Below are positions 22,859-23,984 of a stretch of 32,000 nucleotides of DNA, piece after piece. A program made the translations under genes and the position numbers. Location of the stretch: contig NZ_CVPE01000006.1 in assembly GCF_001049895.1 (NCBI RefSeq), positions 374,957 to 406,956 of the forward strand. Reading direction: 5' to 3'. The DNA comes from Rubeoparvulum massiliense (GTDB taxonomy: Bacteria > Bacillota > Bacilli > Rubeoparvulales > Rubeoparvulaceae). The notes beneath the pieces are model-generated. The model did no database searches. It was not told where the DNA came from and worked only from the letters and a program-made list of their open reading frames with translations. Each line of letters begins with the position of its first letter. Position 1 is the first letter of the stretch.

Positions 22859-23461
22859 CTATTCCTCATGGATTGATTTAAACCGCTTTCGATCACTTTT
22901 AAATTCATTTTCTAGCGCTTTTTTATACTCTTTATATTCTTCTGATGATACGATTTTATCTTTACTTGTTTCATTTAGGGCTAAGCTTGAATTGGGACCA
23001 GATACAAGCAACGAGCCATCTGGTTGAGCATAAGCGGCCATGATGTAGTACTTACCGGTTTGAAATAATTGATCCTCTTCATACAGAACAATAGATTTGT
23101 GATCTTCACTGATTCCTCCGGCTTTGAGAATTTCAAATTCCGTATTTTTCTTGATATTCCCTTTGATATTGTCAACTACCGTAATTTTATATTTCGTATA
23201 GGGATCACTAACCTCTTTGGGACCTTGGCTTGTTTCTATGGTGACTGTATCTTTGTAAAGTGTTTCAACCTCATCCAGTACTTTTGCAACAAAGACATAG
23301 TCAGCATCACCTACAATTTGCGTTAAATCATGGACATCAATACTAAACGAGCCTGCCATATTTAAGACCGGTAATTCACTGGTACTAACATCATTGTTAC
23401 TAGAGCAGGCGCCTAAAATCAGCATTGTTAACAGCATTAGAACCATGAGAAATTTTTTCAT
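22859..23461 (-). CDS. lipoprotein of unknown function with a TIMP/NTR-like OB-fold sequence pattern (candidate protease inhibitor)
   Basis: ORF 22859..23581. The real start is probably the ATG at 23461 (MKKFLMVLMLLTMLILGAC, signal peptide plus lipobox L-G-A-C), preceded by AAGGGAAG. It lies 22 nt downstream of the metzincin gene on the same strand. Confidence 0.7.
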   Translation of the reverse strand: MKKFLMVLMLLTMLILGACSSNNDVSTSELPVLNMAGSFSIDVHDLTQIVGDADYVFVAKVLDEVETLYKDTVTIETSQGPKEVSDPYTKYKITVVDNIKGNIKKNTEFEILKAGGISEDHKSIVLYEEDQLFQTGKYYIMAAYAQPDGSLLVSGPNSSLALNETSKDKIVSSEEYKEYKKALENEFKSDRKRFKSIHEE

Positions 23462-23483
23462 GAATTTATGCACTTCCCTTCTT

Positions 23484-23984
23484 TTAATATGTTTTGTAAG
23501 CTTCATCGTAGGAGCGCTTATCAGTAGTAGACAAACTTGTAAGTGATAGTTTTCCTTGCTGCATAATATCATAGGTTCCATAAGTATGATCTAAGCCTAA
23601 AGCATGACCAAACTCATGTGTTGTTGTCTTAATTCTTTGATTGGTTGTCATCCCAGAGTAATGGTAATCATTGAATTTAATGGTGCCTGCTGAGCTTGTT
23701 ACAGCCATTGTGCTACTAACCTGATAAAAATCACTTAGGTATACATCTTCGATAACCCATGCGCTGTCAGGTCTAATCACACCCGGTTTGTAACCCTCCC
23801 ACAACTTCACAGCACTAGCTACGCTTGAAGTATATTTCGTATTTCCATCCCAATCCAGATGTTTTCCATCATCTACTAGGTCCCATCCGAGGAGTGCAGC
23901 GTTACTTACAATACTGAAGGTTAATGATAATACGACTACTACAGCGATAATTCCCATCCGCTTAATCATTTTGCTTAAAACCAT
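23484..23984 (-). CDS. small secreted zinc metalloprotease, metzincin type (matrixin/snapalysin-like)
   Basis: ORF 23484..24071. The ATG at 23984 follows AAAGGAGAGGG. Signal peptide ...IVSNA/ALL. The extended zinc motif HEFGHALGLDH is encoded at 23586..23618 and is followed by a Met-turn candidate YDIMQ. The mature part is only about 137 aa with no obvious propeptide. Confidence 0.8.
   Translation of the reverse strand: MVLSKMIKRMGIIAVVVVLSLTFSIVSNAALLGWDLVDDGKHLDWDGNTKYTSSVASAVKLWEGYKPGVIRPDSAWVIEDVYLSDFYQVSSTMAVTSSAGTIKFNDYHYSGMTTNQRIKTTTHEFGHALGLDHTYGTYDIMQQGKLSLTSLSTTDKRSYDEAYKTY

Follow-up and report, generated by a model that had tools for sequence, protein, structure and literature searches.

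A metzincin-lipoprotein gene pair of Rubeoparvulum massiliense as a probable Mtz-Tim-type cassette with a predicted TIMP/NTR-like partner

The locus considered here lies in a stretch of 32,000 nucleotides from Rubeoparvulum massiliense (contig NZ_CVPE01000006.1, positions 374,957 to 406,956; hereafter the window) and consists of a gene for a secreted metzincin followed by a gene for a lipoprotein. The closest described system is the Mtz-Tim pair of Listeria monocytogenes (LMRG_00713/LMRG_00714), formed by a secreted metzincin and a lipoprotein that resembles the tissue inhibitors of metalloproteinases (TIMPs) (Boichis et al., 2021; PMC8235301). In Listeria, mtz and tim are adjacent with no promoter in between, their products are predicted to be exported through signal peptidase I (SPI) and signal peptidase II (SPII), respectively, and Tim was recognized as TIMP-like by Phyre2 and not by sequence (PMC8235301). 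The sole relation demonstrated between the two proteins is Mtz's cleavage of Tim, in which active Mtz, but not the E136A mutant, removes about 50 N-terminal residues of Tim (PMC8235301). Cells co-expressing Tim and active Mtz are bent and become sensitized to phage lysins, penicillin, mutanolysin and Triton, and this sensitizing effect is also carried by conditioned medium; Mtz expressed alone was found in the supernatant, with no dependence on Tim reported (PMC8235301). The same authors reported the pair to be conserved across Gram-positive bacteria, proposed Agr control for its phage-borne copies and considered AprI as the nearest bacterial analogy (PMC8235301).

A second published precedent is given by the potempins of Tannerella forsythia, which are lipoprotein inhibitors co-transcribed with their target KLIKK peptidases; one of them, PotA, is an inhibitor with an OB-like (oligonucleotide/oligosaccharide-binding) β-barrel that acts on the karilysin, a protease resembling the matrix metalloproteinases (MMPs), and protects the surface of the producer (Ksiazek et al., 2022; PMC9890683). 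An earlier note on this DNA had assumed that no protease/tethered-inhibitor module of this kind was characterized in bacteria, a premise that both reports contradict and render outdated. As in the potempin systems, a lipoprotein gene is predicted to be co-transcribed with that of a secreted protease in the window, and karilysin, the PotA target, ranks with the best structural matches found for the window protease. Nevertheless, potempin genes lie upstream of the protease gene whereas the window lipoprotein gene lies downstream, potempins are proteins of 98-132 residues from the outer membrane of Bacteroidota, PotA is absent from the top 50 structural matches of the window lipoprotein, and inhibition has been demonstrated for potempins whereas for Tim only cleavage by Mtz, in Listeria, has been. 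Dedicated protein inhibitors of bacterial metzincins are also known from the serralysin systems (AprI/Inh), and sermetstatin is the inhibitor of snapalysin (M7), a bacterial metzincin that is minimal and prodomain-light, with about 130 amino acids (aa). Sermetstatin is of the SSI type and AprI is an eight-stranded barrel, folds unrelated to that of the window lipoprotein, and both are soluble whereas the window lipoprotein is lipid-anchored.

With the Listeria pair the window locus has its architecture in common, namely an SPI metzincin directly before an SPII TIMP-like lipoprotein in one unit, with differences in detail at the Met-turn (AIMLD in LMRG_00713, DIMQQ in the window), the catalytic glutamate (Glu136 in Listeria Mtz, Glu124 in the window) and the lipobox (LTAC in Listeria Tim, LGAC in the window). 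Our preferred reading, held with moderate confidence, is that the locus is a self-contained Mtz-Tim-type cassette, encoding a Sec-exported, prodomain-less MMP-like protease and a dedicated, tethered partner of the TIMP/NTR type, whose function would be understood by analogy with Listeria. Within a family already described though poorly understood, the locus is an ordinary case and adds no new principle.

The first gene, mtz-like (23484..23984, minus strand), is an open reading frame (ORF) for a protein of 166 aa whose signal peptide covers residues 1-29 (23984-23898, minus strand; helix 2-21 in the model; end ...SNA/ALLGW). The zinc motif HEFGHALGLDH occupies residues 123-133 (23618-23586, minus strand) and is followed by the Met-turn Met141 in D-I-M at 139-141 (23564-23562, minus strand). 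In alignments of 68-70 homologs, conservation of H123, E124, H127, G130 and H133 is complete or reaches at least 90%, and M141 does not vary in either alignment. A search for homologs yielded 129 clusters of proteins of 150-180 aa, most of them annotated as 'matrixin family metalloprotease'; both window proteins have database entries in R. massiliense that are 100% identical, the one for the protease being named 'M43 family zinc metalloprotease'. Pfam assigned Peptidase_M10 (PF00413) at 24.2 bits against a cutoff of 24, a local match spanning only profile positions 106-134 of 159, and M43 at 23.6 bits against a cutoff of 23, likewise confined to the HExxH region. PF00413 is precomputed for many of the homologs, and among the NCBIfam metzincin families, including snapalysin and serralysin, the window protease scores far under the cutoffs. 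The AlphaFold2 model (pLDDT 92.6) displays five strands and helices at 52-65, 114-128 and 153-165, and its Foldseek comparison with the PDB gave 173 matches at E <= 1e-3, the 50 best listed being all metzincin catalytic domains. The closest were the catalytic domains of MMP-3, MMP-12 and MMP-2 and karilysin (TM 0.6-0.66), and snapalysin showed the highest target-normalised TM (0.75).

In many secreted metalloproteases the prodomain serves as an intramolecular chaperone. In the homologs of the window protease, a conserved mature N-terminus (LLxWDLVDSGKHLDW) begins straight after the signal peptide, and the 166-aa protein has no cysteines; therefore, there is neither a prodomain nor a cysteine switch (PRCGxPD), and consequently no intrinsic latency. 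A minimal secreted, prodomain-less MMP-like metzincin is thus an accurate description of this protein.

The second gene, tim-like (22859..23461, minus strand), encodes a lipoprotein of 200 aa. Its N-terminus, MKKFLMVLMLLTMLILGAC, is a classical lipobox (LGAC; 23416-23405, minus strand) with the lipidated Cys19, the sole cysteine of the protein. A linker of about 12 residues leads to a cysteine-free, TIMP/NTR-like OB domain predicted at about residues 32-165 (23368-22967, minus strand), after which come C-terminal helices. What the earlier note had read in the two products, that is, the signal peptide with the metzincin motif and DIM Met-turn, the lack of a propeptide or cysteine switch, and a lipobox bearing the only cysteine, is upheld.

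No family of Pfam or NCBIfam matches the lipoprotein beyond its signal peptide, and the TIMP (PF00965) and NTR (PF01759) profiles of Pfam, which had been put forward as a check on the proposed relationship, gave no match even at E <= 10. The search for its homologs yielded 81 clusters; none has a Pfam domain, and some are called 'cell surface protein'. With an E cutoff of 1e-3, an exhaustive profile search gave 1501 representatives clustered at 50% identity, and 325 of them reach E <= 1e-30. The Tim family is thus large, without a Pfam model and without a solved structure. A lipobox is present in about 40% of its full-length members, the mature part is cysteine-free in 115 of 207 of these, and no natural Mtz-Tim fusions occur among the long family members. 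Conserved positions include an acidic loop, Y-E-x-D-x-L (E128, D130), besides other invariant residues of surface type.

In the AlphaFold2 model of the lipoprotein (pLDDT 90.5), a short strand lies at the N-terminus, residues 46-52 form a helix, long β-hairpins make up a barrel and helices are found at the C-terminus; the predicted structure contains an OB-type β-barrel with flanking helices, which is the NTR topology. Its top Foldseek match in the PDB was TIMP-2 (2e2d_C; E 2.7e-4, probability 1.0), followed by the C345C domain of C3, further TIMP-2 entries, the NTR module of PCOLCE and TIMP-1, and generic OB folds (SSB, HIN, RPA) ranked below these TIMP/NTR modules. A TIMP/NTR-like fold is therefore supported by prediction. 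At the level of sequence, the Tim family profile found no TIMP among all PDB sequences, and hhalign comparisons, in which the TIMP sequences used were verified to be identical to the PDB chains, were not significant (P = 0.067 against TIMP-2 and P = 0.15 against a TIMP-1/2/3 N-domain profile). The best local alignment pairs the Tim helix and strand A, LTQIVGDADYVFVAKV, with PQQAFCNADVVIRAKA of TIMP, and also YTKYKITVVDNIKG with IQYEIKQIKMFKG. This optimum is the same as the alignment drawn earlier by eye, which indicates that the structural register was right yet provides no evidence on its own. Of the resemblance to TIMPs first proposed from this sequence, the predicted fold is thus supported and a significant sequence or profile match is not. 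Membership in the TIMP family itself was rejected, as the sequence tests fail and the cysteine and N-terminus features are absent.

TIMPs inhibit through a Cys1 (CxC) that is free at the N-terminus, chelates the catalytic zinc and is braced by conserved disulfides. The vertebrate TIMPs and NTR modules (MEROPS I35, PF00965, PF01759), with their MMPs, likewise have an MMP-like partner protease, and the best PDB matches of the window lipoprotein are TIMP-2, TIMP-1 and NTR/C345C modules. However, the window protein has no disulfides, no CxC and no Cys1-Cys70 brace, its N-terminal Cys is lipidated and not free for zinc chelation, and it carries an additional N-terminal segment and a C-terminal helical tail. 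With a lipidated N-terminal Cys and no disulfide-braced wedge, any inhibition cannot use the TIMP mechanism.

The conservation of the pair was surveyed with one genome per species in 80 loci with a Tim relative, scored by the profile hidden Markov models (HMMs) of both families and by tblastn, and these were divided into close Tim (E <= about 1e-39; 56 loci) and distant Tim (the other 24). Of the 56 close-Tim loci, 36 have a homolog or fragment of Mtz directly upstream and on the same strand, three more hold Mtz remnants, two are at contig edges and about 15 are without any; among the distant loci, only three of 24 have Mtz, all from Methanoperedens. With the abundant Mtz homologs P0133 and P0110 as starting points, Tim was found 15-17 nt downstream in four of four places, the called gene gaps in homologous pairs are 15-17 nt (15 nt in Listeria newyorkensis), and at least 14 Mtz/Tim homolog pairs stand on common contigs. 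The pairing is far beyond chance, and the co-occurrence of the two genes, which the earlier note had wished to see tested, is indeed conserved. On the other hand, dapF and speD, the neighbours in the window, flank the pair nowhere else among the genomes examined, and the surrounding genes vary by genome. That order, strand and a spacing of 15-22 nt are kept in dozens of genomic contexts unrelated to each other points to a direct functional couple, and since the ordered pair recurs in such contexts across Firmicutes and in a few archaea, it behaves as a portable two-gene cassette.

The archaeal copies comprise three tandem Mtz-Tim pairs with an extra Tim in a metagenome-assembled genome (MAG) of the termite-gut methanogen Candidatus Methanimicrococcus odontotermitis (locus L038, 3410-8331) and single pairs in Methanoperedens MAGs (L076, L080, L083), a distribution that suggests horizontal transfer from Firmicutes. 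Among the 2.9 million viral contigs of IMG/VR there were three loci with Tim and only one with a strong Mtz, the Mtz profile scan giving 8 loci in all, and PHROGs gave no match. A very abundant gut variant was also observed, the Mtz cluster P0133 with 614 member sequences (gut metagenome contigs L154 1841-5107 and L155). In loci of this type, Mtz-Tim is directly preceded, on the same strand, by genes for an extracytoplasmic function (ECF)-type sigma factor and for proteins of 264 aa and 166 aa, neither of these two proteins belonging to a Pfam family.

In the window, the cassette is made of the two minus-strand ORFs, metzincin first and lipoprotein second, and lies between genes for DapF (PF01678, 9e-66) and SpeD (PF02675, 1e-35), with an ABC ATPase and a GerA protein as further neighbours. 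Upstream of it, an intrinsic terminator of speD (24155..24205, minus strand; RNA fold of -26.8 kcal/mol, z = -5.1, then UUUUUAUUUUU) isolates the cassette from upstream transcription. A promoter-like site of the sigma-70/SigA type follows (24057..24085, minus strand) with TTGACA, a 17-nt spacer and the extended -10 TG-CATAAT (TGnCATAAT); it matches 11 of 12 consensus positions plus the TG, and its activity is predicted from this consensus match only. The ribosome-binding site (RBS) of the mtz-like gene, as read from the sequence, is GGAGAGGG (23992..23999, minus strand), 7 nt before the ATG. The intergenic spacer (23462..23483, minus strand), likewise read from the letters, has 22 nt and includes a weak RBS of the tim-like gene, AAGGGAAG (23480-23473, minus strand), 11 nt before its ATG. 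After the tim-like gene comes an intrinsic terminator (22780..22827, minus strand) with a stem of 17 bp or more (-28.4 kcal/mol, z = -7.2) and then UUUUU, which was found by RNA folding and missed by a simple terminator scan. The strong terminators on either side and the one promoter indicate that the pair is an insulated bicistronic unit outside both housekeeping operons. These data agree with the layout initially noted for this DNA, with its 22-nt gap, housekeeping neighbours, single upstream promoter region and strong downstream terminator. The pair as a part of the dapF or speD operon was ruled out, as terminators flank it on both sides and the synteny is absent elsewhere. The GC content of the pair is 0.36-0.39, against 0.44-0.46 in the flanks. 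A separate 166-aa ORF between speD and the GerA-family gene (24783-25283, minus strand), without a Pfam match, has a GC content of 0.377, as low as that of the Mtz-Tim pair.

Listeria species hold clear homologs of the window pair, with identities of 41-46% for Mtz and 35-43% for Tim and profile E of 1e-59 to 1e-76. These lie at loci other than the published cI/cro-mtz-tim locus, and LMRG_00713/714 as published have another Met-turn, another position of the catalytic Glu and another signal sequence. The pair of L. newyorkensis (L001 3306-6673) is situated between two divergently oriented Rgg-type regulators of 290 aa (HTH_3 + Rgg_C), which hints at peptide quorum-sensing control. In Listeria sensu stricto and in contigs derived from L. 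monocytogenes, it stands beside two ABC-transporter genes (L005 485-1614; L043 5492-6621; L048; L042; L087 5454-6585); the Tim of these ABC-linked loci has no canonical lipobox, and Mtz is frameshifted in L087. A Listeria prophage (L173 8879-10038; IMG/VR UViG_2627854096_000001) encodes a secreted metzincin of 173 aa about 3 kb downstream of a Ply500-like endolysin, which is the position given for the phage-borne mtz-tim (PMC8235301). This metzincin is matched along its whole length by the Mtz family profile (44 bits), and 68 nt after it comes a gene for an acidic protein of 189 aa that is colinear with Tim over 107 columns. The prophage pair is probably of the phage-borne mtz-tim type of Boichis et al. 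The full-length profile match of the one protein, together with a colinear partner that does not match, suggests that the published Listeria pair is probably a divergent branch of the window protease family whose partner has diverged beyond sequence recognition.

Other searches did not lead to the published Listeria locus. Among 80 Listeria prophage loci downstream of Ply500-like endolysins there was one distant Mtz, with a partner not matching Tim, and tblastn of the window proteins and a Listeria homolog against the phage collection gave only another Listeria locus. None of the loci from the IMG/VR scans with the Tim and Mtz profiles (3 and 8, respectively) is the published one, two degenerate DNA patterns for HExxHxxGxx[HD]...AIM retrieved only unrelated metzincins in IMG/VR, and the homolog search seeded with L. 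newyorkensis Tim returned no L. monocytogenes protein. We also observed that four records named 'Listeria phage LM 4-14-1 / 4-11-1' (UNVERIFIED_ORG; OR848502.1, OR848455.1, OR847095.1 and OR849238.1) are short bacterial chromosomal contigs with tig, clpX and ABC transporters, so matches to them are no evidence of phage carriage.

Beyond the anatomy of the cassette, the metzincin signature, the two predicted folds and the conserved ordered pair, the proposed mode of action is drawn from the Listeria analogy. In such a scheme, both proteins would be exported together and Tim would be lipid-anchored on the outer face of the membrane through its linker of about 12 residues. Mtz would then engage the tethered Tim and cut near its N-terminus, the cut would free a soluble TIMP-like fragment, and Mtz and this fragment may jointly act on the cell envelope. 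It is plausible that the binding of Tim also restrains the prodomain-less protease at the surface of the producer, as a form of self-protection.

Several observations weigh against this reading. The window pair is likened to LMRG_00713/714 by the published description and not by sequence comparison, and the 189-aa prophage protein does not match the Tim profile significantly (HMM 2 bits; hhalign P = 0.28). The TM-scores of the lipoprotein model are modest, at 0.31-0.43 in the PDB comparison and about 0.4 to TIMPs. Unlike the Listeria locus, with its cI/cro-like XRE regulators and mobile-element genes, the window carries neither XRE regulators nor mobile-element genes. In addition, about 30% of the close Tim homologs have no adjacent Mtz, and distant Tim domains occur behind ECF sigma-factor genes or in anti-sigma-like proteins, which indicates that the Tim domain is not exclusively a protease partner.

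Tentatively, the lipoprotein can instead be seen, as the earlier note proposed, as a true cognate inhibitor, binding the active-site cleft of the protease, holding the enzyme inactive at the surface of the producer and protecting the latter as potempins or AprI would, by a mechanism free of cysteines. A protease with no prodomain, no Cys and hence no intrinsic latency, a partner of TIMP/NTR-like predicted fold, the tight and conserved coupling of their genes and the precedent of co-transcribed lipoprotein inhibitors, including an OB-barrel one directed against an MMP-like enzyme (PMC9890683), would all be consistent with this possibility. The Y-E-x-D-x-L loop (E128, D130) and the other invariant surface-type residues could, moreover, approach the zinc. 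However, in Listeria Mtz uses Tim as a substrate, and both Tim and active Mtz are required for the phenotypes, which a pure inhibitor does not predict (PMC8235301). The window protein also has no free N-terminal Cys α-amine, no Cys1-Cys70 brace and no CxC, its gene order is protease-first, opposite to that of the potempins, and the close Tim homologs without an adjacent protease do not fit a dedicated inhibitor. Rather unlikely in our view is the broader idea that the Tim family represents a prokaryotic TIMP/NTR-fold branch that inhibits its cognate MMP-like protease without cysteines; the candidate inhibitory elements would be a neo-N-terminus arising after the protease cuts the tether, or the conserved acidic Y-E-x-D loop.

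Those close homologs without Mtz would be better accommodated if Tim were an envelope sensor or a ligand-binding OB domain, for example for a cell-wall component, that works independently of protease control, with Mtz only as a sheddase or merely co-regulated. The use of Tim as the extracytoplasmic part of anti-sigma-like proteins and its position behind ECF sigma genes point in the same direction, as do the Listeria phenotypes, which indicate the cell wall (PMC8235301). Nevertheless, the strictly kept order, strand and 15-22-nt spacing of the pair in dozens of unrelated contexts, and the specific cleavage of Tim by Mtz shown in Listeria (PMC8235301), make this explanation of the locus improbable. 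Least probable of all is that Tim is a membrane-tethered foldase, replacing the missing prodomain of Mtz in trans during folding or maturation after Sec export and then being cut off, since, although Tim is anchored where Sec substrates emerge and its cleavage resembles prodomain removal, Listeria Mtz reaches the supernatant alone with no Tim dependence reported (PMC8235301) and searches of Pfam, NCBIfam and Foldseek revealed no likeness to known foldases.

Tim-like domains outside the pair were observed in several further settings. In several Bacillaceae, genes for distant Tim domains follow directly after, and overlap, ECF sigma-factor genes with no Mtz nearby (L077 5334-6495, L079, L081, L084, L085; proteins P0211 and P0316), and their products have an anti-sigma-like topology with a cytoplasmic N-terminus, a transmembrane segment and an extracytoplasmic Tim domain. 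In anti-sigma factors, the TIMP-like domain may have a further use as a sensor domain. A nearly identical, distant Tim-like gene of 196 aa recurs without Mtz in many Clostridia/Erysipelotrichales-like MAGs from the gut and in one viral contig (L065-L072, L088; e.g., L066 5088-6396), usually about 150 nt downstream of a gene for a 191-aa XRE-HTH protein with a transmembrane segment. At two other loci (L009 151-774 and L031 8067-8882), a second, weaker Tim-like gene replaces or accompanies Mtz, and the protein P0251 has two tandem Tim-like domains.

If the window locus is, as we favour, an Mtz-Tim-type cassette, its interest lies in what it adds to a family known from little experimental work. 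Prodomain-less bacterial MMP-like proteases pose the question of how the producer controls them, and a widespread TIMP/NTR-like partner would be the obvious answer; the experimental literature on such a partner consists of one paper, which shows cleavage of the partner rather than its inhibitory action (PMC8235301). To this the window contributes a minimal and clean case from a chromosome, which has a promoter of its own and two terminators and is accompanied by neither regulators nor phage genes. For the family as a whole, the present analysis adds its size, a pairing of about 65-70% with fixed gene order, its portability with little viral association, the archaeal copies and the anti-sigma-like relatives. 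If the inhibition proved true, Tim proteins would offer small, disulfide-free scaffolds of MMP inhibitors and a handle on envelope-remodelling modules that potentiate β-lactams. If a prokaryotic TIMP branch proved true as well, bacteria would have an MMP/TIMP system of their own, which would bear on how animal TIMPs arose and be a source of new MMP-inhibitor scaffolds.

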